IMG/VR virus record: IMGVR_UViG_2648501186_000019
Location: 1-19,644 of that record
DNA length: 19,644 bases
Source of the DNA: a virus
Lineage: Duplodnaviria; Heunggongvirae; Uroviricota; Caudoviricetes
Reading direction: 5' to 3' (one strand)
A program made the position numbers and the translations under genes. The notes beneath the pieces are model-generated. The model was given only the letters and a program-made list of their open reading frames with translations. It was not told where the DNA came from and did not search any database. Shown one piece after another: positions 1-17,106 of this stretch (position 1 is the stretch's first letter; the number at the start of each line of letters is the position of its first letter).

Positions 1-273
1 ATGAACATCGGTAAAGCAATCATCAACTACGCAGCACGTCGCAACATGGACATTACCTTGATTGACGATGAGACCGTGGCGTTCTGGGAAGCGGATAACG
101 ATTGTGAATGGATGTTCTCCTACATGATTGGTAATGATGGTTTCCTCCACTTTAAAGGGAATGTGTATCTGCCGCAGGAGATTAAAGAAGAATTACCAGC
201 GTGCATCGATACAGACAAGAAGCTGAAAGAAGTAATCAACTTTATCGCAAACGAGTTTATCAGCAAGAAGTAA
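1..273 (+). CDS. hypothetical protein (90 aa); ATG at window position 1, so the true start may lie upstream
   Basis: Open frame 1-273 ending in TAA at 271-273. No recognisable motifs. The antisense ORF 120-581 is judged spurious. Confidence 0.45.
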   Translation: MNIGKAIINYAARRNMDITLIDDETVAFWEADNDCEWMFSYMIGNDGFLHFKGNVYLPQEIKEELPACIDTDKKLKEVINFIANEFISKK

Positions 274-285
274 GGCAGCAAAACA

Positions 286-672
286 ATGTTCAATATCATG
301 ACTCGTAAATTTGGTGAGATGACTTTCGAGAAAGCTGGTGTTGCTCGTACCGAAGAAGAAGCAATGGCCTTAGTTCTGGTAGCACTGAGATCATCAACTG
401 AGATTATCGACGCTGAATATGTAGCCGCAGAAGGTGAGATTAACGAGATTAAAGCGGTGGCTAAGGAATTAGGTGTTAAAGGTTTCCGTAAGCTGAGACT
501 ATCCCGCGAGTCATATGTAATTGGTAAGCAAGGACAATACCTAGATGAGAATACCGTGATTATTCTACTGAATAAGATCACCCGCTATGGTTTCCAGATT
601 GAGCAATATAAAACGTGTTTCGAATTATACGAAAAAGGTTTGCTGGATACTCTGACCATCGTTCGCGCTTAA
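286..672 (+). CDS. hypothetical protein (128 aa)
   Basis: ATG at 286 follows the upstream stop by 12 nt with an AAGG Shine-Dalgarno-like sequence. Acidic, probably helical, no recognisable motifs. Confidence 0.55.
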   Translation: MFNIMTRKFGEMTFEKAGVARTEEEAMALVLVALRSSTEIIDAEYVAAEGEINEIKAVAKELGVKGFRKLRLSRESYVIGKQGQYLDENTVIILLNKITRYGFQIEQYKTCFELYEKGLLDTLTIVRA

Positions 673-686
673 TTAATTTCTAATTT

Positions 687-712
687 GGTGGGTGCAATTC
701 CCACCGCTTTTT
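687..712 (+). terminator. rho-independent terminator candidate
   Basis: Stem GGTGGG (687-692) pairs with CCCACC (700-705) around a 7-nt loop, followed by GCTTTTT (706-712), directly after the 128-aa ORF stop. Confidence 0.55.
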
Positions 713-729
713 AAACTGGAGAATCAAAC

Positions 730-810
730 ATGTTAGCTTTTATCTCATTCGTGGGAGGTAGTCTCACAACCATGATTAGTCTTTCTTATATTGTCGTTAG
801 TATGGGGTGA
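730..810 (+). CDS. speculative small hydrophobic peptide (26 aa, MLAFISFVGGSLTTMISLSYIVVSMG)
   Basis: ATG at 730 preceded by GGAG (717-720); the whole peptide is hydrophobic. Below the length cutoff of the ORF track. Confidence 0.2.
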   Translation: MLAFISFVGGSLTTMISLSYIVVSMG

Positions 811-813
811 GCA

Positions 814-939
814 ATGAAACAATTTCATGATGGCATTTCATCTAAGACATTCAAGAAAGAATATAGCGGATTGTGTATTAACTGGATTGATTTGATTGGT
901 GCGGTTGTGTTTGGTCTGGTAATTAGCATCAATTTTTAA
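814..939 (+). CDS. speculative small membrane peptide (41 aa) with a C-terminal hydrophobic helix
   Basis: ATG at 814, stop TAA at 937-939. Sequence MKQFHDGISSKTFKKEYSGLCINWIDLIGAVVFGLVISINF has a polar N-terminus and a C-terminal transmembrane-like segment. Confidence 0.25.
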   Translation: MKQFHDGISSKTFKKEYSGLCINWIDLIGAVVFGLVISINF

Positions 940-942
940 CGA

Positions 943-959
943 TATAAATATATCGTAAT
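943..959 (+). promoter_or_regulatory. TATAAATA box within the palindrome CGATATAAATATATCG; candidate phage (late-type) promoter
   Basis: TATAAATA at 943-950 lies 30 nt upstream of ATG 981, with the AAGAGGA Shine-Dalgarno sequence in between. The 15-nt string TAAATATATCGTAAT (945-959) recurs exactly on the - strand at 15881-15895. Confidence 0.35.
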
Positions 960-980
960 TCATTCAAAGAGGATTCAATT

Positions 981-1322
981 ATGAAAAAGACTATCTACGC
1001 AATTATTGTTTCTGTGTGTGTTGGTGGCATCGGTGGATTTGTTTGTGGGTATGACTATTCCGATACTCAACATCAAGAGACTATCCGGTCAAATAAGGCC
1101 GAGATTAAGGATCTGAATCAGGAGATTAGCCAGTTAGAAAATGCTCTCTCACTCAAAGACAGTGAATATAGCGAGGTTTATGCAGATAAACAAAAATATT
1201 GGAAAGAGAAAGATAATCTCGTTGTTTACGGGATGAAATTGTGTAAGAGCATGAAGGACGAGCGCAGTTGTTTAATGGAACTTGCCCTTAAAGGTAACGT
1301 GACCATCGACTTCAAAGACTAA
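981..1322 (+). CDS. membrane-anchored coiled-coil protein (113 aa); function unknown
   Basis: Strong RBS AAGAGGA. N-terminal hydrophobic helix (IYAIIVSVCVGGIGGFVCG) followed by a heptad-like charged region and two C-terminal Cys. No lipobox. Confidence 0.6.
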   Translation: MKKTIYAIIVSVCVGGIGGFVCGYDYSDTQHQETIRSNKAEIKDLNQEISQLENALSLKDSEYSEVYADKQKYWKEKDNLVVYGMKLCKSMKDERSCLMELALKGNVTIDFKD

Positions 1323-1351
1323 TTAATTCAAATAACAAAGAGGATTCTATT

Positions 1352-1597
1352 ATGAAAAAGATTATCGCTGGTGTTGTTCTTGCTCTGGGTTTGGTTGGTG
1401 CTGCTAATGCGGATCAATATGTACAGGGTGATAGTGTCAAGCGTGCTGCCGTTGCACCTTCTTTAAATCAACTGTGTACTGAATTAGCACAGGTTGCCGG
1501 AGTTGGTGACGATGACGACTTTATTACTGCGTGTGTATGGAGTCATATCGAGGATATTAATAAACGTGATGCAAAACTAACTGGAAAGAAATATTAA
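1352..1597 (+). CDS. small secreted protein with a Sec-type signal peptide (81 aa)
   Basis: RBS AAAGAGGATTC nearly identical to that of the preceding gene. N-terminus MKKIIAGVVLALGLVGAANA|DQ resembles a signal peptidase I substrate; no lipobox Cys. The mature part has two Cys and a DDDD patch. Confidence 0.6.
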   Translation: MKKIIAGVVLALGLVGAANADQYVQGDSVKRAAVAPSLNQLCTELAQVAGVGDDDDFITACVWSHIEDINKRDAKLTGKKY

Positions 1598-1613
1598 TGA
1601 CTTACTAACCAAT

Positions 1614-1650
1614 GCCCCTATCGTTATAATACACGGTAGGGGCGTTTTTG
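1614..1650 (+). terminator. rho-independent terminator candidate upstream of the recombinase gene
   Basis: Stem GCCCCTATCG pairs with CGGTAGGGGC (one G-U pair) around a 10-nt loop containing TTATAAT, followed by GTTTTTGTTT. Confidence 0.55.
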
Positions 1651-1662
1651 TTTGGAAATGGT

Positions 1663-3342
1663 ATGAAAACTAAACTGTATTCGTATATTCGCTTCTCTTC
1701 AATGAAGCAAGCGGATGGTAGTTCTTATGAACGCCAAAAGAGAACAGCCGCAGAGATAGCCGCAAAATATGACCTTGAACTGGTTACTTCCTATCAGGAT
1801 TTTGGTGTATCTGCATTCAAAGGGGCTAACAGTAGAACAGGTGCATTATCTCGTTTTCTGGATGAAATTGGTCGATCCGTTCCGGTTGGTAGCTGGCTGG
1901 TTGTGGAAAACTTAGACCGTATCTCTCGCCAATCCATCATTGAAGCACAAGAGCTATTTCTCTCGATTATCCGTAGGGGAATAACTATCGTAACTGGCAT
2001 GGATGGTAAGGTCTATAGCAAGGAATCGGTTAATGCCAATCCTATTGATTTGCTGTTGAGTGTCATGTTGTTTGCGAGAGCTAACGAGGAAAGTCAGACT
2101 AAGCGCAATCGTACTAACTCAAGCGCATTGATTAAGATTAAAGCTCATCAAGAAAATCCACAAAATCCGGCTGTTGCAATCGAGGAAATTGGAAAGAATA
2201 TGTGGTGGACTGATACCACATCTGGTTATGTGCTTCCTCATCCGGTCTTCTTCCCTATTGTTCAGGAGGTTGTGGAATTACGCAGGAATGGACGGTCAAC
2301 CGCCGAGATACTGGATCACCTTAACGCGACATACACACCACCACCAGCCGCAAGTCACAAGAGGCATTCAAACTGGTCACGGGCAATGATTGAAAGGTTG
2401 TTCCATACCCGCGCTTTGATTGGTATCAAGGAAATCTCTGTAGATGGCGTTAAGTATGAGTTAAAGGATTATTATCCTCGTGTGCTAGATGACGCTGAGT
2501 TTTATCACCTTAAGAAAAGCATTGGTGTTAGAGCATGTAACTATGGAGACAAGGAAGAAGTTAAACCTATTCCCTTGCTTAGTGGTGTTGGTCTATTGAA
2601 ATGTGAACATTGCGGTTCCGCTATGGTTAAGGTGAAAGGAACTAACAAACGTCCTAACCAATATCGTTATTCATGCGATGCAATGCGCTCTAGTCGTATT
2701 GCATGTGTGCATACAAACTGGAGTTTTCGAGGTGATCAATTAGAGAAAGCTGTATTGCAATTGCTGGCTGATAAAATCTGGATTGCTGAGGATAAGGCTA
2801 ATCCGGTTCCGGCTTTGAAAGTACAGATTGATGAAATATCACGCAAGATTGATAACCTGATTACCCTTTCTGCTATGACAGGAGCAACGAAGGAGTTAGC
2901 CGACCAGATTACTACCCTCAATAGCGAGCGTGAAACACTCTACAATCAGATTAAGATGGCAGAAGAGGAAATGTATTCTGTGGACTCTCAAGGCTGGGAG
3001 AAGCTCGCAGAATTTGATTTAGAAGATGTTTATAACGAGGATCGCATTAAGGTCCGGTTTAAGATTAAGCAAGCTCTAAAACGGATCGGGTGTAGCAGGA
3101 TTGACAAATACAAAAACTTGTTTGTACTGGAATACATTGATGGTAAGACCCAGAGAGTTGTAATAGAAAATTCAAGAGGACCGAGGAAAGGCCGGATCTT
3201 CGTTGATTTGAAGACCATCAATGATAGGCAGATTCTGGAGAGTAACGGGCTTGTTTTGCATCCATGTTTAGACATGCTGACAGATAAGAACTGGAAACCA
3301 GAAGAGGAAATACCAGGTCCATTACAGGAATTTGGAATTTAA
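1663..3342 (+). CDS. large serine recombinase (serine integrase/resolvase family), 559 aa from ATG 1663
   Basis: N-terminal catalytic motif YSYIRFSSMKQ...SYERQ (Y-x-R-x-S nucleophile region), a large central domain, a Cys-rich zinc-ribbon-like segment (CEHCGS...YSCD...IACVH) and a coiled-coil-like stretch. The track start at 1648 is TTG; ATG 1663 is preferred. Confidence 0.9.
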   Translation: MKTKLYSYIRFSSMKQADGSSYERQKRTAAEIAAKYDLELVTSYQDFGVSAFKGANSRTGALSRFLDEIGRSVPVGSWLVVENLDRISRQSIIEAQELFLSIIRRGITIVTGMDGKVYSKESVNANPIDLLLSVMLFARANEESQTKRNRTNSSALIKIKAHQENPQNPAVAIEEIGKNMWWTDTTSGYVLPHPVFFPIVQEVVELRRNGRSTAEILDHLNATYTPPPAASHKRHSNWSRAMIERLFHTRALIGIKEISVDGVKYELKDYYPRVLDDAEFYHLKKSIGVRACNYGDKEEVKPIPLLSGVGLLKCEHCGSAMVKVKGTNKRPNQYRYSCDAMRSSRIACVHTNWSFRGDQLEKAVLQLLADKIWIAEDKANPVPALKVQIDEISRKIDNLITLSAMTGATKELADQITTLNSERETLYNQIKMAEEEMYSVDSQGWEKLAEFDLEDVYNEDRIKVRFKIKQALKRIGCSRIDKYKNLFVLEYIDGKTQRVVIENSRGPRKGRIFVDLKTINDRQILESNGLVLHPCLDMLTDKNWKPEEEIPGPLQEFGI

Positions 3343-3380
3343 GCGGCCTAAATCGACGTATAACGAGCTAAAATAGTTAA

Positions 3381-3403
3381 GGGGTACAGATGTACCCCTT
3401 TTT
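3381..3403 (+). terminator. rho-independent terminator after the recombinase gene
   Basis: GGGGTAC (3381-3387), loop AGAT, GTACCCC (3392-3398), then TTTTT (3399-3403). Confidence 0.7.
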
Positions 3404-3437
3404 AATTTAATTGCGTTAGGCAGCGTAAGCAAGTTTC

Positions 3438-3474
3438 ATAGTAGTTTCCTCTAAAATAATAAGTTCACTACTAT
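3438..3474. repeat. inverted repeat ATAGTAGT / ACTACTAT with a 21-nt AT-rich spacer; CACTACT-like motif recurs at about 3492-3502 and 3559-3568
   Basis: Direct reading of the recombinase-helicase intergenic region; the two arms are exact reverse complements. Confidence 0.45.
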
Positions 3475-3618
3475 TTATCAGAGAAAATTGTCTTACTATT
3501 GCATTCTCTATCTGGATGTGGGTATAGGCGGGATTGAATACGGCAAAACTGAAACATTCCACTACTGCAATAAATCACTAAACAATATAAAGAATATTGC
3601 AAGTGTGGAGTGGAACTA

Positions 3619-5109
3619 ATGCAAGATATTAAAATTCATTTTCAAGATTACAGTTTCGTTAAGGTTGATTGCTCTCCTTCTATCGGAATGGAATTAAGAG
3701 ATTATTTCTCGTTTGAGGTTGAAGGGGCTAGGTTTAGCCCCCGTTACAAGTATTCTGGCTGGGATGGACGAATAAGACTGTTTACGCATGAAAACACCCT
3801 ACCAATTGGACTATTAAAAACGTTGGGTGTCTTCGTTAAAAATATGGGCTATTCAGTCTGGATTGACCCCAGATTGCTTGAGAAGGAAGATGTAACCAAA
3901 GACGCGATTAATGAATGGATTGATTCCTTAGAAGTGTATTCCGGTAGCAATAAAATCAATCCTTATTGGTATCAAAGGGAGGCAGTCTTTCAGGGTATCC
4001 ACAATCGCCGTAGAATGCTGGTTCTTCCTACCAGTGCCGGAAAGTCATTGATTGCTTGTATGCTGTCTCGTTGGTACTTAGAGAACTACACCGGAAAAGT
4101 GTTAATCATTGTTCCGACTACATCGCTAGTGGTTCAAATGAGGGATGATTTCATCGATTATAGGCTATTCCCTTATGAAGCAATTCATACAATGATGAGT
4201 GGTAGCGGGAAACATCCGGGAGACAGGTTAATCACGGTTAGTACATGGCAATCAGCGTGCAAGATGCCTCCTGAATGGTTCAAACAATATGGAATGTTGA
4301 TAGTTGATGAATCGCATAAGGCTAGTGCCAAAAATATTACCAATATCATTAACGGAATGAATCATTGCCAATTTAAGATCGGCATGACTGGTTCCCCTAA
4401 AGAATCAAAATGCCATCTTTTACAGTATGTCGGACTTTTCGGTGATATTTCTAAGATCGTGAGTATTGACCGCCTGATGGAAGAAGGGCAGGTGACAAAA
4501 CTGAAAATTAACTGTCTTTTCCTTCGTTATACCGATGAGGAATGTAGCGCGGTTAAGGGGCGAGAATATGCGGAAGAGATCAAGTATATTACATCTAACC
4601 CACGACGAAATAAGTTTGCTTGCAATTTGGCGCTAAAACTCGCTAAGAAGGGCGAAAACGTATTCCTGATGTTCCGCAATACTAAGCACGGAAAACTTAT
4701 GTATGATGCGTTACAGAAGGTACACGACAAGGTTTATTATATTGACGGTGGAGTTAAGACAGAAGAACGAGACGAGTTCAAAAAATTAGCGGAAGGGGAA
4801 ACAGGGATCATTTGCGTTGCATCCTATGGTGTGTTCTCTACTGGTGTTTCCATCAAGAACTTGCATCATGTTATTTTCGGTCATCCAGTGAAGGAATCAA
4901 CTATCGTTCGTCAGAGTATCGGTCGTGCATTGCGTAAACATGGTTCTAAGGATATTGCAACGGTCTGGGATCTTATAGATCATTTGTGTATATTCGGTCG
5001 TAACGGAAAAGTCAAGCATAAAAATTATGCGGTAAAACATGCACTTGAGAGAATCCGCTATTATTTGACCGACAAGTTCAGCTATGCAACTAAAACAATT
5101 GCTATATAA
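3619..5109 (+). CDS. uvsW: SF2 DNA helicase of the T4 UvsW type (497 aa from ATG 3619)
   Basis: Walker A LPTSAGKS, DExH box LIVDESHKA, motif III-like TGSP, C-terminal helicase motifs (VASYGVFSTGVSIKNLHHV, QSIGRALRKHGSK). The N-terminus MQDIKIHFQDYSFVKVDC and overall pattern track the T4 UvsW sequence as I recall it. RBS GGAG 8 nt upstream of ATG 3619; the track start at 3610 is GTG. Confidence 0.85.
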   Translation: MQDIKIHFQDYSFVKVDCSPSIGMELRDYFSFEVEGARFSPRYKYSGWDGRIRLFTHENTLPIGLLKTLGVFVKNMGYSVWIDPRLLEKEDVTKDAINEWIDSLEVYSGSNKINPYWYQREAVFQGIHNRRRMLVLPTSAGKSLIACMLSRWYLENYTGKVLIIVPTTSLVVQMRDDFIDYRLFPYEAIHTMMSGSGKHPGDRLITVSTWQSACKMPPEWFKQYGMLIVDESHKASAKNITNIINGMNHCQFKIGMTGSPKESKCHLLQYVGLFGDISKIVSIDRLMEEGQVTKLKINCLFLRYTDEECSAVKGREYAEEIKYITSNPRRNKFACNLALKLAKKGENVFLMFRNTKHGKLMYDALQKVHDKVYYIDGGVKTEERDEFKKLAEGETGIICVASYGVFSTGVSIKNLHHVIFGHPVKESTIVRQSIGRALRKHGSKDIATVWDLIDHLCIFGRNGKVKHKNYAVKHALERIRYYLTDKFSYATKTIAI

Positions 5110-5110
5110 C

Positions 5111-5140
5111 AAAAAAAGCGCCCACTAGAGGCGCTTTAAT
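5111..5140. terminator. bidirectional rho-independent terminator between convergent helicase and endolysin genes
   Basis: A-tract, stem AGCGCC (5117-5122), 7-nt loop, GGCGCT (5130-5135), T-rich tail; reads as hairpin plus U-tract on both strands. Confidence 0.6.
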
Positions 5141-5141
5141 T

Positions 5142-5495
5142 TTATCCATGCCAGCGTGATTTTTTCGATCTGGAATCGATATGCGTAAAGGTTTTATATT
5201 TGCCTAAGCCGTATTGAGTAGGATATTTCCCATCAAGATAAGCATGGACAATATCAGGAGAAATTCCTTTCACTGATATGTCGGCCGCACGGCCTCGAAC
5301 ATGATAGCTATTGGTTGCACCGCCTACATTCTTGTTATGAGTCGGACAACGGTTCCCGCTGTTAATAATTACTGGTTTCCCGAAGTGTTCGCGTACATCC
5401 TCAAGAATTACCAGCAGTTCAGCGTCGATAGTATCATAATCACATTTTCCGCATTTACATTTAAATTCCTTGCGAGAAAAATGCTTGCTTAACAT
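5142..5495 (-). CDS. endolysin, zinc peptidase M15 family (L-alanyl-D-glutamate peptidase / D-Ala-D-Ala carboxypeptidase-like), 117 aa
   Basis: H-x6-D zinc motif (SYHVRGRAADI) and downstream His (FTHID), as in Peptidase_M15 endolysins. ATG at 5495 has a strong AGGGGG Shine-Dalgarno sequence; the track start at 5531 is TTG. No signal peptide visible. Confidence 0.8.
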   Translation of the reverse strand: MLSKHFSRKEFKCKCGKCDYDTIDAELLVILEDVREHFGKPVIINSGNRCPTHNKNVGGATNSYHVRGRAADISVKGISPDIVHAYLDGKYPTQYGLGKYKTFTHIDSRSKKSRWHG

Positions 5496-5505
5496 ATTAC
5501 CCCCT

Positions 5506-5853
5506 TTAGATGTATTGCATAAGATACCCAATAAATCTGAGTCCCTTAATGTAATAAGGTGCTGTGCCTATGCATACCGCTCGTGCATCACCAATACAAT
5601 TGAAGTTGTAAGGGTTAACTACATCAATCTCCTGCCCTACACGGAAGCGGTATTTAGGACGTTTAGCGAGTGTCGCAACACAAAACACTAACCCGTTACC
5701 ATCATCGCGGATCATTTGCTTGAATTGTTTATGCTTTACTCTCTTCGCCTCGTAATCAAGTGTCATTGATTCAGGGCTAATGCCATTGATAAAAATACCG
5801 GAAAGCTGGTCGACCGGATAAGTAGGAAATTCAGTGAAAATATTTTTAGCCAT
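5506..5853 (-). CDS. hypothetical protein (115 aa), translationally coupled to the endolysin
   Basis: Strong GGGGGT Shine-Dalgarno sequence before ATG 5853; the stop is 10 nt before the endolysin ATG. No TM segment and no recognised motif; three Cys. Confidence 0.6.
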   Translation of the reverse strand: MAKNIFTEFPTYPVDQLSGIFINGISPESMTLDYEAKRVKHKQFKQMIRDDGNGLVFCVATLAKRPKYRFRVGQEIDVVNPYNFNCIGDARAVCIGTAPYYIKGLRFIGYLMQYI

Positions 5854-5891
5854 GTTATACCCCCATAAGATTCTATGAGGGTATTTATGGA

Positions 5892-6497
5892 TTAAACGAA
5901 GTTGATTTTACCCATGAAGTGCTTTTTCATCTTCTTCTGGATATTCTTCTTCATCGTTTTCTCATTATCTTTCCAACTACCCATGATGTTACTACGGTCT
6001 GTTTTCTTCAACACTGCAACAAGTCGCTTCCCTAGCTTTTTCTTGTTCTTCATGTCGGCTTTAACGGATGGATCGAGAAGCAGTATTTTACCAGTCTTAG
6101 ATTTTGTGGTTACATACTTCCCTATTTTCTTACCGTTTCTGAGTTGTGGAATGTTACCAAACTGGTTAGTTCGGTCATCAGTTACAGGAACAAATTTCTC
6201 AATATTATTACCACCTTCAAAGTAATATTTTAAGTATTTTTCCTGATTCTTCATGATGAAAACACTATGGTAAGACGTTTTACCGCTTGAGCGTATCCGG
6301 TTGTATGAATTGACCGCTTTCTGTGTGAACTTGGTCGGTCGATCTATCCTTGAATTGACTTTCTTCTGCAACTTTACCCGCTCATCTATGACCGCTAAAC
6401 CCAAATCCCTATGAAAGCTATTACTAGCTTTCTGTTTCCAACTCTTGATATCTTTTTTTACTTTATCAATATTGGATGTGATTATTGGATTAGCCAT
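5892..6497 (-). CDS. highly basic lysine-rich protein (201 aa), function unknown
   Basis: AGGGGG Shine-Dalgarno sequence; ATG 6497 lies 1 nt after the upstream stop. Very Lys-rich with a poly-basic C-terminus (KKNIQKKMKKHFMGK). Confidence 0.6.
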   Translation of the reverse strand: MANPIITSNIDKVKKDIKSWKQKASNSFHRDLGLAVIDERVKLQKKVNSRIDRPTKFTQKAVNSYNRIRSSGKTSYHSVFIMKNQEKYLKYYFEGGNNIEKFVPVTDDRTNQFGNIPQLRNGKKIGKYVTTKSKTGKILLLDPSVKADMKNKKKLGKRLVAVLKKTDRSNIMGSWKDNEKTMKKNIQKKMKKHFMGKINFV

Positions 6498-6498
6498 G

Positions 6499-6669
6499 TT
6501 AGCCCCCTAATAACGAAAAGACCCCCGCCAGTGTCCTTAGCAATTGTTCATCCACGGTCATAGCCGGGAGTTCAAGCCCAAAGGACGTTAGCAGAGGTCT
6601 AATTGCTACGTTATAAGTGAGGGCGACAATCAAGAGATAACCAAAATATTTCTTAAGTTTATTCTTCAT
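6499..6669 (-). CDS. small membrane protein (56 aa from ATG 6669); holin-like or immunity candidate
   Basis: AAGGGG Shine-Dalgarno sequence 7 nt before ATG 6669. Sequence MKNKLKKYFGYLLIVALTYNVAIRPLL... has a basic N-terminus and one or two hydrophobic helices; no lipobox. Confidence 0.45.
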   Translation of the reverse strand: MKNKLKKYFGYLLIVALTYNVAIRPLLTSFGLELPAMTVDEQLLRTLAGVFSLLGG

Positions 6670-6688
6670 ATATTCACCCCTTTTATTA

Positions 6689-6967
6689 TTATTTTTGTCT
6701 GAGTAAATCGATAACTTGGTCAAATTTGGCGTCCATCGCAACCACTTTCTTCTCTATACCGTGAAGGGTTTGTTCCATGCGATAAACTCTCTCGGCGATC
6801 TGGTCATGGTTACTTTGCATTGTTTCAAACTTCTGATTAAACAATGCATCATTGGACTCTAATTTCGACAATCTATTTTCTGTTGCTATTTGATTTCGGT
6901 GAAGTCTCCATAATCCACCACAAATTAAGGCGATAACACCGATACCGCCATATATAATTTCAGTCAT
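6689..6967 (-). CDS. single-pass membrane protein with a coiled-coil domain (92 aa)
   Basis: N-terminal TM segment (IIYGGIGVIALICGGLW) followed by a charged helical region. GGGGG Shine-Dalgarno sequence before ATG 6967. First gene after the terminator downstream of the gpJ-like gene. Confidence 0.6.
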   Translation of the reverse strand: MTEIIYGGIGVIALICGGLWRLHRNQIATENRLSKLESNDALFNQKFETMQSNHDQIAERVYRMEQTLHGIEKKVVAMDAKFDQVIDLLRQK

Positions 6968-7011
6968 TACGCCCCCGATATTTTTATATAGTTTAATGGC
7001 AAAATTATTTA

Positions 7012-7054
7012 GATAAAAATAATCCCGCCTAACTCAAAAGAATTAAGCGGGATT
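7012..7054 (-). terminator. rho-independent terminator after the gpJ-like gene (- strand)
   Basis: 8-bp stem AATCCCGC / GCGGGATT (7021-7028 with 7047-7054), followed on the - strand by a U-rich run (AUUUUUAUCU). Confidence 0.6.
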
Positions 7055-7073
7055 TATTATTAAAAATTAAATT

Positions 7074-10000
7074 TTAAGAAACAGTAATACCAGTAGTGGC
7101 TTTTTTAGTTACCATTACTGTTAAATCACTGATCCATGTGCTAGGCGTCCAGTTGTTGATTGCGCTTGATTGCACTTCAAAGGTCAAGGTCACAGCACCT
7201 TTACCCGCTGGCATATCAATAACACCTGAGTAAAGACCAGTATTACCGCCATACGCCCTATTATACAACTCTGACCCATTCTTACGAACAATCAGGCGAC
7301 AGGTGTCGTAATAGGTATTATTGTTCGACCCTTCACGCGCTCGCAATCCACCAAAACTAACAGCCGGAATAACGATTTGACGATCGAACTTGTGATCATC
7401 TTCAACGCGAACAGTGACCGTACCCTGTGGATAACCAGCATAACCATTATCAACGTTAACATCACGATGCGGGAACTTACGTCCAATCACCTTAACGAAA
7501 TCACCCTTAACCTGAGTAGCTTCAAGCATACCCTTAATAACACAGCTAGAGTTAATCGTGACGTTGTTCAGAGTACCAGAATCAGCAGTGATATTACCTT
7601 TAACGGTTGCATTCATGAACGTAGCGGACCCGTTCTTGTTGATATGCCATCCGGTCGATCCGTTCCAGTTGGAAGACTGGATATAGTTACCGATTTTAGC
7701 GTTATCAATTGCACCGTTTACGATCTTCGCGTTAGTGATTGCCCCGTCCTGAATCTTCGCGCTGTTAATTGCAGCATTGCCGATTTTAGCCGTGGTAATC
7801 GCCGCATCATTAATCTGGGCTGTACCAATTGCAGCATTACGAATCATCGCATTATCGAGATAAACCTTGTTACCTTCGATACCAAACGGGCATACTTCCG
7901 ATCCGTTCTGTGGAGCTACCGCGATTTTATCGGCATTAAAGATGATTCTCGTCGGTTGCGCCGGATCGTTGGTTGCGCTCATGTGAATACCAGCCACGCG
8001 ACCATCTGCATTAACCGCTAGATTGTATTTGCTGTTAATGGTTCCTTTCAAAGCATCGATTTTTACATCTGCTTCCTGATTCACACCAGCAATCTTGCCA
8101 TCCATTTCTACCCGAACTTGATCAATCTTACTTGCGCTTGCTGCCTCACTGGTAGCAATAGCTTGTTTCAGGGTAGTAGCAGATGCGCTGACTTCGGATT
8201 TAATATCGCCTTTCAGTTCAGCTTTAACCTGATCAATCTTAGTGGAGCTAGCTTGCTCGCTGGTAGCAATCAGACTCTTTAAGGTATTGGCTGAGGCTTG
8301 GACCGTCTGCCCTGTTTCGGTAGTGATTTGCTTATGCATTGCATCAATTTTAGCATCGGCATTAGCGCCAGCTTGAGCAATAGCATCCGCGATAGTTTCA
8401 TCTAAGCGGTCTTGTAAACCAATCAGGTCTTCCAGTGCTTCTTTGTCCTGATCGTCCCAGCTAATGGTAGATTTCATTTGCATGAAATACGGTTCAGACC
8501 AAACAGCATCATCCATACCGAAAATATCGTAGTGAGCACCACGGATATAATAATCACCGTCAGCAATATCAAAGGAAGTATGGCTAACACTATTCGTGCT
8601 TACTGCCCTTGCATCGGAGAACGTGTTATCGGTTGCATACTGGATGATTGACCCTGCATAATCATGTTCTACGTCATCTGCCCAGCTAACAAACGCAGTA
8701 TTAAAGCCACCACGCGCACTAAAACCTTTCATTGGCTTATGTTGTGGGTTGATAGCCACTAAACGCGCTGGGGCGCTCTCTGAGTTGTTATATCCCTTAG
8801 CTGATACTTCTACCGTCAGTTGACGCGAAAGGCCGTTAAACTGGTTCATATCAAGCGTATAAGTCCATGATTCAGGATCGCGGGTACGGTACTGAATAGA
8901 CTTACCAGCCTTGTTAGTCACCTTGATAATGTATGCTTCAAACAGGTCACTAAACTTGTTAGTTTCACCGTTGATCTCAACATCTAAGCCTTGCTGGTTA
9001 TCCCATTCGATAATCAGATCATTACCTTCGAAAGTTCCTGGCGTGCTACCCTGATTTTTGATTCGAATAACCGGAGTCGGCAATTCATAGGTAACAGTCG
9101 GATTCTGGTTAATCAGTTCTACCCAATCGGATCGCGCGATGATACCGAAAGCACAAACTCGGTAATCATAAGAGCGATCTTTCGCCAGTGCATTGACACT
9201 GAAAATTTGCTGTGAAGTCTGACCGAGCTTAATCCAGTTAGGTGATCCGCTTACACGGTAATCAATCTGGAAGCCATAACGGTTAAAATCTTCCGGTGCA
9301 TCCCATGTCAAAGTAACATTTTTACCGTAAATCGTCTCGCCAGTTGCCTTAATTCTGAAATTAGTAGGCTTCTGTACTGTCATTGAATCCGGTAAACCAC
9401 TTGGTCTATTGTCCGGTTTAGCCGCATAATCCAGATCTGTGTAAATCTGAGAATTATATTCTGTGGCGGTGATAGACAAAATACCAGCAATACCAGAATC
9501 AATGCTACGCTCAATAGAGATAATACGCCAAAGTGAATTATTCAGTTTCAATTCATCGTGGGTAACGCTGATAACGTCCCAAACTTCCGCGCTGAATGCA
9601 TCGGTAGTAGTGAAGTTGATAACCTGAGTAATACGAGATTTATTTCGTTCAATGCTCGCTAATTTGTCAATCTGGTTTTCATCTTTAACAAAGCGATATT
9701 CTACGTCTTTAGCAATAATGCGCCCATCTTGACGGATAGTAGCATCATTTTCAGCATCAGCCGGATAACGTAGCATTTGCTCTGAATAGTCTAAAGATGG
9801 TTCCTGATAGATTGCGTTAATGGTATTGAAATAACCGTTAGTGCCACCTGTTTTCAGGTTAACTTTCCCCATCATTATATTGTCTTCATTGAAGGTATGT
9901 TTAACAATATCAGGAGCATCCAGTTTCAGCGTAATACGTCCAAAGGATTCAAACATTACCCCGCCGAAAGTCTGCATCAATCCGGTCAAGTTCTCTTTAA

Positions 10001-10856
10001 AGCTGGCGTTCGGATCACATGCACCGTTAGAGTGCAAATTCATCTGGCGAACTTGAGAACGTACTTTCAGGAATGAATCAACGTTAATGTTTTCAATTGG
10101 TACTGATAAACCATATTTTTCATTTGTTAGGTAGTGGAAAATCTGATCCACGCCGTTAGTGCTAGCCTCAATAGCATTGGTTTCAAGGTTACGAATCTTT
10201 AATCCGCAAACGTCTACTGCTACCTGGCTATTTGGCTGGAGAATATCAACACCAGCAGCAAGAGATTTGTCATCACGACGTAACACAATACACATGGTTG
10301 CAATGCCGTTACCCTTGTAAGCATCGGTCCAGTCTGAGCCTAAATGAGTTTTTGCCAGTGACAATGCGGTGTTAGGATTCTTACCCGTGCGGAACTCGAC
10401 TTCTAACACTTTACGGTATTCTTCTTTAATGTTGCCCTTATCGAGAATGCCATCACGGATCGTCATGTTTCGACCAATCAGCACGTTTTTATTATCGATG
10501 AATAGTGCTTTGTAATGGTCAATTTCACCCTCGGCAATTGCGAAGATTTGCACTAACTTATTGTTTTCTTTCTTAGAAATTGCTTTGTAAACACAGATAG
10601 CACCAGTTCGAGTAGTACCAAAAATAACTGGTAATACTGTTTTAGGATCGTTTGATGTTCCTAGTGTCACTGCGTTATCTGGGCTTTGTACCTTCGGTGT
10701 TTTCGGTGCGCCTACAGTGGAAGCAATCAAAGACAATGCACCAGCACCAATACCGATAGCAACAGCCGCTAATGTTGAAATTGCCGCCACGGAAGCAGCA
10801 GCCATCCCAGCCGACGCACCAGCAATAACCGCGCCGACCAATACTTCTACGCCCAT
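7074..10856 (-). CDS. tail tip central fibre / host specificity protein (gpJ-like) with an N-terminal gpI-like domain and a lambda-J-type C-terminal receptor-binding domain (1260 aa)
   Basis: ATG 10856 with a GGGGG Shine-Dalgarno sequence, overlapping the upstream stop. Residues 1-50 are a Gly/Ala-rich hydrophobic segment, followed by APKTPK...VLPVIFG..R.G, reminiscent of the lambda gpI C-terminal half. The middle has FN3-like segments, a duplicated helical segment and 8-residue (A)IxNAKI repeats. The C-terminus (DDHKFDRQIVIP...VIDMPAGKG...VMVTKKATTGITVS) follows the pattern of the lambda J C-terminal domain as I recall it. Confidence 0.9.
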   Translation of the reverse strand: MGVEVLVGAVIAGASAGMAAASVAAISTLAAVAIGIGAGALSLIASTVGAPKTPKVQSPDNAVTLGTSNDPKTVLPVIFGTTRTGAICVYKAISKKENNKLVQIFAIAEGEIDHYKALFIDNKNVLIGRNMTIRDGILDKGNIKEEYRKVLEVEFRTGKNPNTALSLAKTHLGSDWTDAYKGNGIATMCIVLRRDDKSLAAGVDILQPNSQVAVDVCGLKIRNLETNAIEASTNGVDQIFHYLTNEKYGLSVPIENINVDSFLKVRSQVRQMNLHSNGACDPNASFKENLTGLMQTFGGVMFESFGRITLKLDAPDIVKHTFNEDNIMMGKVNLKTGGTNGYFNTINAIYQEPSLDYSEQMLRYPADAENDATIRQDGRIIAKDVEYRFVKDENQIDKLASIERNKSRITQVINFTTTDAFSAEVWDVISVTHDELKLNNSLWRIISIERSIDSGIAGILSITATEYNSQIYTDLDYAAKPDNRPSGLPDSMTVQKPTNFRIKATGETIYGKNVTLTWDAPEDFNRYGFQIDYRVSGSPNWIKLGQTSQQIFSVNALAKDRSYDYRVCAFGIIARSDWVELINQNPTVTYELPTPVIRIKNQGSTPGTFEGNDLIIEWDNQQGLDVEINGETNKFSDLFEAYIIKVTNKAGKSIQYRTRDPESWTYTLDMNQFNGLSRQLTVEVSAKGYNNSESAPARLVAINPQHKPMKGFSARGGFNTAFVSWADDVEHDYAGSIIQYATDNTFSDARAVSTNSVSHTSFDIADGDYYIRGAHYDIFGMDDAVWSEPYFMQMKSTISWDDQDKEALEDLIGLQDRLDETIADAIAQAGANADAKIDAMHKQITTETGQTVQASANTLKSLIATSEQASSTKIDQVKAELKGDIKSEVSASATTLKQAIATSEAASASKIDQVRVEMDGKIAGVNQEADVKIDALKGTINSKYNLAVNADGRVAGIHMSATNDPAQPTRIIFNADKIAVAPQNGSEVCPFGIEGNKVYLDNAMIRNAAIGTAQINDAAITTAKIGNAAINSAKIQDGAITNAKIVNGAIDNAKIGNYIQSSNWNGSTGWHINKNGSATFMNATVKGNITADSGTLNNVTINSSCVIKGMLEATQVKGDFVKVIGRKFPHRDVNVDNGYAGYPQGTVTVRVEDDHKFDRQIVIPAVSFGGLRAREGSNNNTYYDTCRLIVRKNGSELYNRAYGGNTGLYSGVIDMPAGKGAVTLTFEVQSSAINNWTPSTWISDLTVMVTKKATTGITVS
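7692..7859 (-). repeat. imperfect 24-nt (8-codon) tandem repeats inside the gpJ-like gene
   Basis: Protein-level repeats NAAIGTAQI / NDAAITTAKI / GNAAINSAKI / QDGAITNAKI / VNGAIDNAKI and matching DNA periodicity. Confidence 0.5.
8117..8330 (-). repeat. roughly 110-nt imperfect tandem duplication inside the gpJ-like gene (helical shaft segment)
   Basis: DNA blocks at about 8117-8227 and 8228-8330 share TGATCAATCTTA...GCTTGCT..CTGGTAGCAAT. Protein segments TLKSLIATSEQASSTKIDQVKAELKGDIKSEV and TLKQAIATSEAASASKIDQVRVEMDGKIAG are clear paralogues. Confidence 0.45.
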
Positions 10857-11275
10857 AGATCACCCCCAAAGCGATAAGCATCGTTATAATCAATTTCGTA
10901 AATCGGCTTGGTCGTCCAGATTCCATCTTCGGTAACGAGTCCATAGCCAGAATAATAAGGAGTCACGGAGTAATACTTACGGTTTCCTAATTTGTGATCG
11001 CGGATCAATAGATCGCCGTCCTGTAAATCATCAGTAACTAATTTAAAATGTTCTTTGATAGGCTGGAGGATATTGGTATATCCGCTAAGTTCTTTACAGA
11101 CTTTCAAGCCTTCTTCTTTCGTTGAATATTTTTTATAAAGAGAATTATATAGGTCAGTTCCAGCGAGAATATCGATGATCTTACATGCAATTAAATTGCA
11201 ATCATTCTCGCCTTGAACGAACTCCTGACCTACTAATGAATTGATGTAATCAGTGATAAGCCTAGTTTTTAGCAT
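10847..11275 (-). CDS. tail tip assembly protein, gpK-like with NlpC/P60-type Cys/His residues (about 142 aa)
   Basis: ATG 11275 preceded by GGAGG at 8-nt spacing. Motif GENDCNLIAC and downstream His (IRDHKLG) are consistent with a papain-like NlpC/P60 fold. Position between the gpL-like and gpJ-like genes. The track ORF extends to 11521 but overlaps the upstream gene. Confidence 0.5.
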   Translation of the reverse strand: MLKTRLITDYINSLVGQEFVQGENDCNLIACKIIDILAGTDLYNSLYKKYSTKEEGLKVCKELSGYTNILQPIKEHFKLVTDDLQDGDLLIRDHKLGNRKYYSVTPYYSGYGLVTEDGIWTTKPIYEIDYNDAYRFGGDLWA

Positions 11276-11324
11276 GTTGAATACCTCCATGCTGTTATTT
11301 ACTAGGCTTAGGGAGAAGGGATTA

Positions 11325-11978
11325 TTACTTTTTAGAGCTAAACCATTTTGATTCCGCGTTCCAGCGACCCGCCCTTGAGAAGAATAGATCGTTCTCGTTT
11401 CCTGGGTATGAGCGATGAATACCATCAGAAGCATGACTACGAGCGTTTTTATCGAGAACTTCCCAGATACTATTAAGCTGGAACTCTGATTCGTTGGTAC
11501 ATTCTTTATCCTTGTAGTCAATAGAAATATTGATGTTATCGACTACACCACGGAAAACAGGGTAAGTGGTTTCAACCTTGCCCGTGTTGGGGTTCAAGAA
11601 TACCATTTCGATTTTCACATCTGATTTATCGAATTGCTTGTTTCGAATGAGAGTAATGTATTCTTCTCGAACGTTCGAAACGTTAACGGTGATCCCGTTG
11701 TTGTTGATTTCTTTTTCTTCGGAGTTGGAAGAAATATCAAGAAAGTCACCGCTAGCGAGATAGGTAAATCCGTTATAGTCTAAGTCAAAGTACCCATCTG
11801 TAAGCCGTAGAACGTCCCCTGACGCGGTAATCACTTCGATAATGTGAAACATCGATCCGGTGGAAAAAAGCTGCGGTAGCGTCAATCTGGTAACTTCCTG
11901 CCCCGTCTGGTCGTTGTATACCTCGATAAAGTCAATATTGGTACAGAGTTTATTAAATGCGTCTTGAATAGTAGCCAT
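11325..11978 (-). CDS. minor tail protein, gpL-like (217 aa)
   Basis: Synteny (TMP, M, L, K, J) and N-terminal and mid-region resemblance to lambda gpL as recalled. Start ATG overlaps the upstream stop (TAATG). Lacks the C-terminal Cys cluster of lambda L. Confidence 0.55.
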   Translation of the reverse strand: MATIQDAFNKLCTNIDFIEVYNDQTGQEVTRLTLPQLFSTGSMFHIIEVITASGDVLRLTDGYFDLDYNGFTYLASGDFLDISSNSEEKEINNNGITVNVSNVREEYITLIRNKQFDKSDVKIEMVFLNPNTGKVETTYPVFRGVVDNINISIDYKDKECTNESEFQLNSIWEVLDKNARSHASDGIHRSYPGNENDLFFSRAGRWNAESKWFSSKK

Positions 11979-12538
11979 TATACATTCTCCACTAATTCAA
12001 ATTTCATCTTGCCAATCTGGGCGATGTTCCAATCGATGTTTTCAGTAGTGAGAAGAAATTCACCTTCAACGTTCTGATACTTGATCACCTCACCCGCTAG
12101 GACGTTCTGACGCAAGTTAGGGAAGAGTTTCATTTCACCACCTGATTTCACGTCTTCGGTGATCGTGTAGATTTTCTTGTGGTTCTCAAACTGGATGATA
12201 GTTCCCGCTTTCAGTGTTCCGGTGAAGTTGGAGAGTCTCACCTTACGCCCACCGCGAGCAGTACCAGCAGCAGCCGTAACCATCTGGCGTACATCACCTG
12301 TATATTTTGAAAAGTAAGACAGCGGAACAGTGAACGGACGACCAAAAAGGTGACGTGCTACAAATTCTTTTACTTCGTTAATATCCTGAGCCATGAAATT
12401 AGCTGTAAATTCTGCTTCATAGTAATGAATACCAGTAAAGCGACGCTGGAACTTACCAGAAATGGATTGCGCCTTGAAGAAAGGTTGTTTTGATTTAAGA
12501 GTAAAATCTGTGATTTTAATATTCTTGGATTTGAACAT
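11978..12538 (-). CDS. minor tail protein, gpM-like N-terminal region with a C-terminal extension (about 186 aa)
   Basis: First gene after the tape measure. ATG around 12538 is preceded by GGGGG inside the hairpin; the track start at 12574 is a GTG lying within the hairpin stem. Weak resemblance to lambda gpM in the first 100 residues. Confidence 0.5.
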   Translation of the reverse strand: MFKSKNIKITDFTLKSKQPFFKAQSISGKFQRRFTGIHYYEAEFTANFMAQDINEVKEFVARHLFGRPFTVPLSYFSKYTGDVRQMVTAAAGTARGGRKVRLSNFTGTLKAGTIIQFENHKKIYTITEDVKSGGEMKLFPNLRQNVLAGEVIKYQNVEGEFLLTTENIDWNIAQIGKMKFELVENV

Positions 12539-12541
12539 AGA

Positions 12542-12588
12542 AAAAGCCCCCATAGTTTTATGATTATTTATCACTATGGGGGCTTTTA
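12542..12588 (-). terminator. perfect 14-bp inverted repeat hairpin between the tape measure and gpM-like genes; attenuator/terminator candidate
   Basis: AAAAGCCCCCATAG ... CTATGGGGGCTTTT with an 18-nt AT-rich loop, an A-tract on one side and a T-tract on the other. The loop contains GATAAATA. Coordinates are +/-1. Confidence 0.5.
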
Positions 12589-12589
12589 A

Positions 12590-15109: not shown

Positions 15110-15131
15110 ATTAACCTCTTATTCTTATTAT

Positions 15132-15163
15132 ATAAAAAAGCCCCACCGATAAAGGCAGGGCTT
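15132..15163 (-). terminator. rho-independent terminator/attenuator between chaperone and tape measure genes; copy 1 of a repeated hairpin
   Basis: On the - strand: AAGCCCTGCC, loop, GGTGGGGCTT (two G-U pairs), then UUUUUU. Near-identical to the element at 16413-16443. Confidence 0.55.
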
Positions 15164-15172
15164 ATAATTCAA

Positions 15173-15557
15173 TTAATCTGCGGTCGCCCTTAACTTATTG
15201 ACTAACGCCGGATCAAACATGCTCAACATTGCAGCTTTGCGATCTTCTTCTTTCTTACGCTCGATTTCTTCCAGTTCTTCTTTAGTCTTGAAGATTTTCT
15301 CTTCTTTGATTAACTGGAATTGGCTAGGTTTAATTTTATTAGCCATTTCTTTAGTCATTCCCTGAGAAGTCATATAAAGGGAATATTGAAGCATAGCGTT
15401 TTGCATGTCATGAAATGCGGGGGATTGTGGTTCTAAGTAAGTGTCGAAAATATGCAGTGACCAAAAAAGTGTCACTGGCATATTATCCATTTCATCTTTA
15501 CTCAATCCACGCCGCATCATCTGGCGGAAGTAGAAAGTTAAGAGCGGGTTTACTTTA
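15173..15557 (-). CDS. frameshift extension of the tail assembly chaperone (GT-like product), -1 frame relative to 15550-15858
   Basis: The -1 frame is open from 15571 through the G stop, and its first ATG (15520) has no Shine-Dalgarno sequence. The 21-nt overlap contains GGTAAAGTAA (15550-15559), where a P-site Lys slip from AAG to AAA is possible at the stop codon. Confidence 0.45.
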
Positions 15558-15858
15558 CCGATTCTTCTACCTTACTCGGTTCCGGCATCATAGAAGCCAG
15601 AGCAACCAGACCGATCAATTGTGCTTTAACAGTTGTGTAAAGGGCTTTAACTTGTTTAATATTAGTGAAAACTGGTTTACCGCTTTCATCTTCGATACAT
15701 TTCAGAATAGTACGTTCGTCGCGGTCTTCTTTATTGTTATTCTGAATGTGCTCGTTAAATTCCTGTACGCTCATCGGACGGGCATAAAATTTAAAGCCGT
15801 TGATTTCCATTGCTTCGCGTTTCGGGGAAAGAGCTTTCATTAAATCGTTGATATTCAT
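15550..15858 (-). CDS. tail assembly chaperone (gpG-like), 102 aa
   Basis: Small acidic protein immediately upstream of the tape measure with an overlapping -1 ORF. GAGGAAA Shine-Dalgarno sequence before ATG 15858. Confidence 0.6.
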   Translation of the reverse strand: MNINDLMKALSPKREAMEINGFKFYARPMSVQEFNEHIQNNNKEDRDERTILKCIEDESGKPVFTNIKQVKALYTTVKAQLIGLVALASMMPEPSKVEESVK

Positions 15859-15880
15859 TTTTGTTTCCTCATTAACAATG

Positions 15881-15897
15881 ATTACGATATATTTATG
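15881..15897 (-). promoter_or_regulatory. CATAAATA box plus TATCGTAAT; second copy of the 15-nt motif seen at 945-959
   Basis: The - strand reads CATAAATATATCGTAATCATT; the box ends 31 nt upstream of ATG 15858 (30 nt at the + strand copy). It overlaps the stop codon of the 168-aa gene. Confidence 0.35.
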
Positions 15898-16399
15898 TGA
15901 TCTTTAAACTCTGCTTAGTGCCAGTCTTCTTAATGTTGGTAAGGAAAGCAGCCGGAGGATTGCTTAACCAATAGTAATGAAAACCACTTTGCATACTGTT
16001 ATAAGGAACAGTGACAGTAGCACCACCCAAATTAACGGTTATATTCCCCGCTCTACCGTTCTGGAGATATACAGCCATAGTAGGAGTACCGCCATTGAAT
16101 TGACCAACGATAACGCCAATCAGACGCCCTACGCCCACGTTTTCGGGGTTCTCCATAGATCCTTTACCGCGCATGTCAGTTACTGGATAGTTTGAAGCAG
16201 TTACACCCCAGTTATTACCCAATGAAGTAGACCACGATGCAGTAGCAACAACCGTATCCATACCACGACCACACATAGCACTCATGTTAGCTGGGCGACT
16301 AACCTTTAATGCGTTCATTGCTGCGGTCATCCATCGTTGACCAGTTACAGAAACAGCAGATGACCCGACCCAGCCGGGCTTATTAACGACATTTGCCAT
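15893..16399 (-). CDS. hypothetical tail-module protein (168 aa), Gly/Ser/Thr/Asn-rich
   Basis: GGAG Shine-Dalgarno sequence 9 nt before ATG 16399, just downstream of the terminator hairpin. Composition suggests a beta-rich structural protein; could alternatively be the tube subunit. Confidence 0.55.
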   Translation of the reverse strand: MANVVNKPGWVGSSAVSVTGQRWMTAAMNALKVSRPANMSAMCGRGMDTVVATASWSTSLGNNWGVTASNYPVTDMRGKGSMENPENVGVGRLIGVIVGQFNGGTPTMAVYLQNGRAGNITVNLGGATVTVPYNSMQSGFHYYWLSNPPAAFLTNIKKTGTKQSLKIT

Positions 16400-16412
16400 T
16401 TTGATTACTCCA

Positions 16413-16443: not shown

Positions 16444-16573
16444 AAAATTAATTCTTAGCCTTGCGGCCTCGTTTTGCTGTGGCTTTCGCCGTAACTTCTT
16501 CTACTTCTGGAATCACCACCGCTTCATGTTCCGGCTGTGGTTCCGGTTCTATTAAAGGAAGTTCTTCGTTAGT

Positions 16574-17099: not shown

Positions 17100-17106
17100 A
17101 CTTTTA

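Follow-up and report, generated by a model that had tools for sequence, protein, structure and literature searches.

An exchangeable accessory slot at the left end of an enterobacterial prophage holds ORFan envelope proteins

Variable hotspots for defence or accessory genes in prophages and satellites, such as those of the P2/P4 type, carry unrelated alternative cargo in a fixed slot between conserved flanks, and at constant-leader, variable-mature loci, such as those of class II bacteriocins and polymorphic toxins, a conserved N-terminal targeting module is combined with swapped functional domains. Phage T4 blocks superinfection by T-even phages with the small exported proteins Spackle (gp61.3) and Imm. 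The i-spanins of the lambda Rz type have an N-in/C-out signal anchor, a periplasmic coiled coil and cysteines. Prophage morons, among them exclusion proteins such as HK97 gp15, are terminator-bounded accessory genes with membrane or envelope products that are dispensable for the phage cycle and occur in some relatives only (PMC3594210). Here, we describe a locus that resembles each of these in part, in a 19,644-nucleotide (nt) stretch of DNA (IMG/VR record IMGVR_UViG_2648501186_000019, positions 1 to 19,644; hereafter the window). The window is the attL-proximal (left) end of an Escherichia coli prophage of ~35–37 kb with a large serine integrase, and not part of a free lytic phage. In it, a gene for a 113-amino-acid (aa) protein with a predicted membrane anchor and a gene for an 81-aa protein with a predicted secretion signal lie in tandem behind similar leader sequences. 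The locus is a prophage accessory slot that holds ORFan envelope proteins, positioned next to attL between two membrane micro-open reading frames (micro-ORFs) and the serine integrase of ~35–37 kb enterobacterial prophages. We consider independent accessory cargo cassettes that act at the envelope the best explanation of the two genes, with a probability of roughly 0.55.

Both ORFs lie where the initial annotation had placed them, each behind its own leader, between a palindrome and the integrase gene:

940..955: palindrome CGATATA-AA-TATATCG (16 nt), adjoining the first cargo leader on its 5' side; the slot's fixed left edge
956..980, plus strand: leader 1, TAATTCATTCAAAGAGGATTCAATT, the Shine-Dalgarno region of type-A (membrane-anchored) cassettes; over 956–983 it reads TAATTCATTCAAAGAGGATTCAATTATG
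981..1322, plus strand: gene for the 113-aa protein, cargo cassette A (predicted signal anchor 4–23, modelled helix 28–89, C-terminal motif)
1324..1351, plus strand: leader 2 in its hybrid form 2b, TAATTCAAATAACAAAGAGGATTCTATT, the Shine-Dalgarno region of type-B (secreted) cassettes; over 1324–1354 it reads TAATTCAAATAACAAAGAGGATTCTATTATG
1352..1597, plus strand: gene for the 81-aa precursor, cargo cassette B (predicted Sec signal 1–20, then a 61-aa mature part modelled as a helical hairpin)
1611..1651, plus strand: strong intrinsic terminator that closes the cargo block (14-bp stem, 7 G-C pairs); constant 3' module of type B
1663..3342, plus strand: large serine recombinase, the prophage integrase (Pfam Resolvase, Recombinase and Zn_ribbon_recom; PHROG 95)

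Window position 1 is the first gene of the prophage, and the block with the 113-aa and 81-aa genes is located between the attachment (att) site and the integrase gene (int). The same DNA occurs in 57–58 of 5,426 complete E. coli genomes and is chromosomal every time. In strain OkiPb01713 the element measures ~37.5 kb and splits hicB, and in other strains ycdX or further genes are split by the prophage. The serine recombinase is the fixed right-hand neighbour of the cargo slot, and relatives differ in what they carry between the palindrome and this gene. A census of 57 complete E. coli genomes, with cargo types verified in selected loci (L numbers), and of further assemblies gave the following contents:

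113-aa and 81-aa genes together: 8 of 57 complete E. coli genomes
81-aa gene alone: 19 of 57 complete genomes
139-aa protein with an unrelated body, after the same leader and signal peptide: ~25 of 57 complete genomes
27-aa hydrophobic ORF and 82-aa variant, each with a separate leader copy: one locus, L008
Cytoplasmic 348-aa protein with three CapR domains and T5orf172 behind the same leader: verified in L010 and L023
Stand-alone 106-aa variant of the 113-aa protein: L004–L006 (draft assemblies)
153-aa protein (P0024), alone: L013 and L014

The 113-aa gene is missing from 49 of the 57 related prophages. Using the 3' 15 bases of the palindrome plus TAATT as query, we found 24 IMG/VR contigs of this phage family (~35 kb each) with the same cargo mix, and a Salmonella relative (L041) has the same architecture. 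The initial annotation had taken the two genes for a pair; since the 81-aa gene stands alone in 19 genomes and the 113-aa family in L004–L006, and only 8 genomes hold both, they do not form an obligate pair or two-component system.

The alternative cargos are unrelated in their bodies and alike at their ends. The 139-aa protein begins with a signal peptide identical to that of the 81-aa protein, and P0024, found in the same slot, begins with an anchor identical to that of the 113-aa protein. Scored per 15 nt, identity between alternative cargos is 0.87–1.0 across leader and signal, drops to 0.2–0.4 as soon as the cleavage site or anchor has been passed, and picks up again at the terminator. 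Signal-peptide codons change more slowly than mature parts (nonsynonymous rate (dN) 0.05–0.12 versus 0.13–0.56), and the synonymous rate (dS) in the N-terminal module of the 113-aa gene is 0.22, one quarter of that in the remainder (~0.98). It is very probable that these are independent, exchangeable cassettes with a constant leader-plus-export module. Each cassette would consist of a constant 5' module, a variable body and a constant terminator, the 5' module being an unstructured AU-rich leader with a GAGG Shine-Dalgarno sequence, usually followed by an N-terminal export signal. Type A would combine a signal anchor (starting MKKTIAAIIVSVCVG) with the 113/106-aa coiled coil or the unrelated 153-aa body, and type B a cleavable Sec signal peptide (MKKIIAGIVLALGLVGAANA) with the 81-aa helical hairpin or the unrelated 139-aa body.

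Individual loci record how such cassettes move. In L002 an indel flanked by a TAATTCA repeat common to the two leaders has taken out the 113-aa gene, and in L035 leader 1 is joined directly to the 81-aa gene, which is the product expected of a crossover within their shared core. L008 holds an additional 27-aa cassette with its own leader copy, and stand-alone type-A cassettes carry their own terminator. Judged from these junctions, recombination between leader copies has taken place repeatedly in this family, and bodies are swapped, added in tandem or deleted by homologous recombination, with the shared 5' and 3' modules as homology arms.

The leader appears twice in the window because cassettes A and B stand there in tandem. 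A common 25-nt core, AAAGAGGATTCNATTATGAAAAAGA, which runs from the Shine-Dalgarno sequence to codon 4, has exactly two copies in the 19,644 bases with up to 3 mismatches allowed, against 0 expected by chance (200 shuffles). An ungapped similarity of 63 nt (75%; 965–1027 versus 1336–1398) extends from it into the codons of the hydrophobic N-termini. The two leaders are rich in A and U, with no structure predicted, and searches of the leaders against Rfam matched no RNA family. The initial annotation had described the two leaders as nearly identical. The repeat itself is significant, but the near-identity is confined to a sub-lineage: in most relatives leader 2 is more divergent (AAGAGGAAATTCTACTATG), and leader 2 of the window is a hybrid of an upstream half of the common type-2 form and a Shine-Dalgarno half of type 1. 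Rather than an oddity of translation, the duplicated leader represents the conserved 5' part of exchangeable cassettes, made up of leader and export signal, at which recombination takes place.

Export signals had been proposed for both proteins, and both are borne out by sequence rules and hydropathy, on which the membrane and periplasmic dispositions given here are based. The 113-aa protein starts with Lys2-Lys3 followed by 20 hydrophobic residues (Kyte-Doolittle maximum 2.38, residues 8–22). Its AlphaFold2 model is a single long helix (28–89) with a short helix (94–105), and it ends in the motif LCKxMKxxRxCLMELA, which contains Cys88 and Cys97. The two cysteines are invariant among close homologues and retained in three distant ones. 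The 81-aa protein has a Sec signal of textbook type by inspection and hydropathy, with a charged n-region (MKK), a hydrophobic core (h-region) and small residues at −3/−1 of a cleavage site between A-N-A and D; its relatives keep small A/S residues there (ATA, ASA, SSA). The model of the mature part is a helical hairpin (H27–49 and H55–77) with an acidic loop, in which Cys42 and Cys61 occupy mirror positions flanking the loop and face one another. The invariant Cys pairs in both proteins argue for an oxidising compartment. The 113-aa protein would sit in the inner membrane, N-in/C-out, as an oligomeric coiled-coil stalk that displays a disulfide-stapled conserved C-terminal motif in the periplasm, and the 81-aa protein would be freed into the periplasm as a disulfide-stapled helical hairpin.

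Both genes are real, envelope-targeted and under purifying selection, with a ratio of nonsynonymous to synonymous rates (dN/dS) of 0.09–0.42. The ratio is 0.09–0.17 for the 81-aa gene and 0.29–0.42 for the 113-aa gene, in which it falls to 0.13 in the C-terminal 35 residues and rises to 0.54 in the coiled coil. When 1.8 billion representatives were searched with a hidden Markov model of the 113-aa family, only three distant homologues (104–110 aa) were returned, all unnamed, together with P0024, which has only the anchor in common with the family. The distant homologues belong to another prophage family, in which they lie at the prophage edge and follow near-consensus sigma-70 promoters (TTGACA-17-TATACT in L011 and TTGACA-17-TATCAT in L015). 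The copy of the 113-aa gene in L028 is frameshifted, which shows that this gene is dispensable. That frameshift and the ORFan status of both genes are what could be said for spurious or decaying ORFs, with the leader repeat as a chance or slippage artefact. Such an origin has next to no probability and is refuted by conservation across two prophage families and Salmonella, by dN/dS values well under 1, by the significance of the leader repeat and by good Shine-Dalgarno spacing.

The slot has constant partners on its left side:

686..712, plus strand: intrinsic-terminator-like hairpin with a T-run (7-bp stem, 5 G-C pairs); left boundary of the block
730..810, plus strand: micro-ORF p26 (26 aa, hydrophobic throughout by hydropathy), with GGAG 8 nt 5' of the ATG
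814..939, plus strand: micro-ORF p41 (41 aa) with a C-terminal transmembrane segment (hydropathy maximum 2.51, residues 25–39)

The order of the block is 90-aa gene, 128-aa gene, terminator, p26, p41, palindrome, 113-aa gene, 81-aa gene, terminator and serine recombinase. The hairpin at 686..712 closes the upstream 90-aa and 128-aa genes and is kept in all aligned relatives; its folding z-score is merely −1.2 and its strength is uncertain. The terminator at 1611..1651 folds at −23.4 kcal/mol (z = −3.78), which none of 200 shuffles equalled. p26 and p41 are the constant partners of the variable slot. Most copies of the two micro-ORFs are unannotated. p26 is present in every relative and in Salmonella, as one of two divergent but equally hydrophobic alleles. 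p41 is likewise found in every relative including Salmonella, with a RefSeq annotation in some genomes, and its frame is intact in L003, L004 and Salmonella L041 despite a codon indel and substitutions. The palindrome is kept at the nucleotide level from E. coli to Salmonella, with the L041 copy near-identical (T replacing the first C); a protein may bind to it, or it may mark a fixed limit of recombination.

Spanins are one of the classes to which the 113-aa protein had been likened. It shares with lambda Rz i-spanins the N-in/C-out signal anchor, the periplasmic coiled coil and the cysteines, and three family members give weak matches to PHROG 739, 'Rz-like spanin' (E = 0.002–0.009). By hydropathy and the AlphaFold2 model the anchor and coiled coil are as in an i-spanin, and the resemblance ends with this architecture: the protein has no o-spanin partner, no site in a lysis cassette, no conservation among relatives of the kind expected of a gene that phages of Gram-negative hosts need for lysis, and no significant similarity to the family. 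An unconventional two-component spanin, with the 113-aa protein as i-spanin and the secreted 81-aa protein as a non-lipoprotein outer partner, could be proposed for a type II membrane protein with periplasmic coiled coil and Cys, all the more as the window otherwise has no recognised spanin. This is very improbable and largely refuted. The two genes occur independently, and the putative i-spanin gene, which only 8 of 57 related prophages possess, carries a frameshift in one locus. The endolysin and holin-like genes are on the other strand, and terminators enclose the putative i-spanin gene in a unit distinct from theirs. The PHROG 739 matches span the transmembrane segment and coiled coil but not the C-terminal motif, hhalign against lambda Rz gives a probability of 0.2% (BLASTP E = 0.93), and there is no spanin among the BFVD fold matches.

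The initial annotation was right that a lipoprotein partner is absent. A six-frame lipobox scan of the whole window gave no credible candidate; the sole pattern match is antisense in a 201-aa gene, with an Asp within its hydrophobic core, and the cleavage site of the 81-aa protein has no Cys at +1. Cor/Llp-type lipoprotein exclusion factors were also considered and rejected, as neither protein has a lipobox. The placement of the genes in the early arm, far from the endolysin, stands in part: they lie beside the recombinase in a transcription unit apart from the lysis genes, but the M15 endolysin (5142–5495, minus strand) is only ~3.5 kb away and directly follows the recombinase in relatives without uvsW. 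The lysis region (5142–6967, minus strand) comprises the M15 peptidase endolysin, a 56-aa holin-like ORF with two transmembrane segments and a 92-aa coiled-coil protein with an N-terminal transmembrane segment. Paralogy between this 92-aa protein and the 113-aa protein was tried and rejected (hhalign probability 0.4%). A spanin or substitute of the prophage was not recognised in the 19.6-kb window, which holds no credible lipobox ORF.

Each of the two proteins most likely acts alone, and would do so at the envelope against incoming phages or another envelope-level attack; for superinfection exclusion, the candidate stages would be DNA entry or cell-wall penetration. An envelope-level conflict is suggested by the mostly exported cargo, the invariant periplasmic Cys pairs and the variability of the slot, together with the CapR/T5orf172 alternative cargo and the precedent of moron-encoded exclusion (PMC3594210). 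The label of exclusion or immunity factor in the initial annotation would fit a variable slot in which some relatives carry the conflict-type CapR/T5orf172 protein. We put a periplasmic exclusion or defence function of the slot cargo at somewhat below even odds. More speculative is a polymorphic periplasmic-effector locus, in which a fixed plug (leader plus Sec signal or anchor) is combined with shuffled domains and the 113-aa and 81-aa proteins would be two new superinfection-exclusion families. These could block DNA entry or cell-wall penetration by rival phages, possibly the T-even phages with which the prophage exchanges genes; we hold this only tentatively.

Several points weigh against independent envelope-acting cargo. 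Searches of Pfam, PHROGs, NCBIfam and PADLOC gave nothing significant, only weak compositional matches to coiled-coil or transmembrane parts; those in PADLOC-DB (E ~5e-4) are to the transmembrane and coiled-coil parts of DRT accessory models. Sequence searches of the PDB with both proteins found no significant match, the sole entry with a low E-value, 7rdr, being dismissed as a designed repeat protein, and Foldseek returned nothing below E = 1 for the 81-aa model against PDB or the 113-aa model against BFVD and PDB. Neither experiment nor homology ties either protein to phage exclusion. The topologies are rule-based predictions, and the structural models have moderate confidence (pLDDT 67 and 69.5) from shallow alignments. 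Part of the slot cargo is not exported. The GC content of the two genes (0.392 and 0.415) equals that of their neighbours (0.416 for the whole window), and so gives no signature of horizontal transfer. Finally, no sigma-70 promoter was found within or just upstream of the block in this prophage family: the scan gave no match of at least 9/12 upstream of either gene, although consensus scans can miss real promoters, and the sole candidate is a weak CTCACA-18-TATATT inside p26. Outside these databases, neither gene had a nucleotide or tblastn match among 50,697 phage records, and a literature search on the RefSeq accessions and on the prophage found nothing.

The missing promoter bears on two further explanations. 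The first is that the cargo consists of factors for lysogenic conversion that act on the envelope and have no connection with phage, such as orphan immunity proteins that counter periplasm-acting toxins (colicins or type VI secretion system effectors), or proteins that change envelope stress or the interaction with the host. Small periplasmic or anchored ORFans in a variable slot at a prophage end would suit such factors, as would disulfide-stapled small domains and a lipoprotein in the same att-proximal block of Salmonella, and many non-exclusion roles are listed for morons (PMC3594210). We regard it as unlikely, given that neither protein resembles a known immunity or virulence family, that the sole alternative cargo with recognisable domains is of a nucleic-acid or phage-conflict type (CapR/T5orf172), and that a promoter for expression in the prophage state was not found. 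The second holds that the proteins are made during infection, with or just before the integrase, and affect envelope or lysis timing as a T4 RI-like antiholin sensor or in the manner of LidI, a small transmembrane protein of the PLE satellite that alters lysis inhibition; they would then not be a defence expressed in the lysogen. The genes are indeed on the int strand and directly 5' of int, with no sigma-70 promoter of their own detected, and the Cys pair is predicted to be periplasmic. The anchor of the 113-aa protein is rich in Gly, Ser, Cys and Ala (10 of 20 residues), which we take to be a likeness to signal-anchor-release domains. This second explanation is less likely still than the first. 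Terminators set the block apart from the upstream genes and from int, the 113-aa gene is absent from most relatives and broken in one, and neither sequence nor fold matches the T4 RI chains in PDB. The gene at the opposite prophage end closes with its own terminator before attR, and read-through transcription across attP from that end was rejected on this ground.

Independent envelope cargo can also be set against the described systems. As in morons (PMC3594210), the genes are present in some relatives and absent from others and have their own terminator, but no promoter of their own was found and their GC content does not deviate. They also differ from morons in occupying a dedicated slot next to att and int rather than being scattered in the late operon, and in sharing a constant leader and export signal. 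Neither the 113-aa nor the 81-aa protein has sequence similarity to HK97 gp15. The 81-aa protein resembles T4 Spackle in being small, helical and predicted to be periplasmic with an N-terminal signal, and the prophage has exchanged genes (uvsW, gp37 and gp38) with T-even phages (Krischvirus). However, it has no PDB match at E <= 10, Spackle entries included, and no Foldseek match, and a two-helix hairpin is too simple a fold for an argument of homology. Homology to T4 Spackle and RI was rejected for want of any sequence or fold match; the likeness is architectural only.

The closest parallel in organisation is to the variable hotspots and leader loci, with which the slot shares conserved flanks, unrelated alternative cargo and a conserved N-terminal targeting module in front of swapped functional domains. 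Here, the constant module is a Sec signal or anchor plus translation-initiation region, and the cargo is very small. The slot is also like defence hotspots in that one cargo has conflict-system domains (CapR/T5orf172), whereas PADLOC detected no known defence family here.

Among the alternative cargos, the CapR/T5orf172 protein (3285–4331 in L010, and in L023) has a GIY-YIG-like T5orf172 domain. CapR of a Vibrio PLE satellite is a T5orf172 protein (bioRxiv 10.1101/2021.07.12.452122). In Salmonella L041 a protein with only a faint CapR match is encoded just past the recombinase (7229–8380); the CapR-type proteins of L010/L023 and L041 are of the conflict-system type and lie within this prophage family. 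The att-proximal block of L041 further encodes a 105-aa lipoprotein (4253–4570; lipobox STGC; PHROG 13472/10370), an envelope-targeted accessory protein. A homologue search with the 139-aa cargo returned hypothetical proteins only, and a Cor-like nature of this allele was rejected, PHROG 1119 being matched weakly in only 2 of 8 members of the 139-aa family.

In the region between the cargo block and int (within 1598–1662), the terminator has TATAAT in its loop and TTACTA 17 nt 5' of the TATAAT, and by sequence the promoter of int may overlap this terminator. Between the integrase and the uvsW insertion, at 3379–3400, is a perfect bidirectional terminator hairpin, AAGGGGTACAGATGTACCCCTT. No Pfam match identified a repressor or regulator in the early region of the prophage. 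The prophage family integrates at varied host genes, namely hicB, ycdX, a DUF1722 gene and a site beside an FAD-oxidase gene (L001, L002, L004, L013), and the serine recombinases of its members have diverged to ~90% nucleotide identity. A PHP/ycdX-like gene is also the target of a second family of prophages, which is unrelated and carries pRha.

The prophage is of a siphovirus-type temperate phage, with a tape measure, a distal tail protein and a lambda-like terminase and portal. It also carries T-even genes at 3610–5109 (plus strand), 15893–16399 (minus strand) and 17107–19587 (minus strand). Its UvsW has 81% protein identity to UvsW of RB49/Krischvirus, a gp37-like distal long-tail-fibre gene has ~80% nucleotide identity to Krischvirus, and a gp38-like adhesin is recognised through PHROG 1121. 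Among the relatives examined (L003–L006 and L041), UvsY is found in the prophages too, and UvsW in the Salmonella relative. The presence of T-even genes in a temperate prophage indicates that temperate siphoviruses and the virulent T-even phages exchange genes.

For annotation, the locus shows that a protein with an N-terminal transmembrane segment and a coiled coil should be named a spanin only if it has a partner and lies in the context of a lysis cassette, and that cassette boundaries can be recognised from repeats of the translation-initiation region. Should the proposed function prove wrong, the two genes would be accessory ORFans of the ordinary kind, in a prophage family that is itself poorly characterised. 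If the cargo does act in exclusion, the slot would supply several compact and easily testable candidate periplasmic anti-phage proteins, with mature domains of 61–120 residues that have no assigned fold family. It would also be a natural case of prophages that vary their defences at the envelope, exchanging domains while the export signal in front stays fixed.

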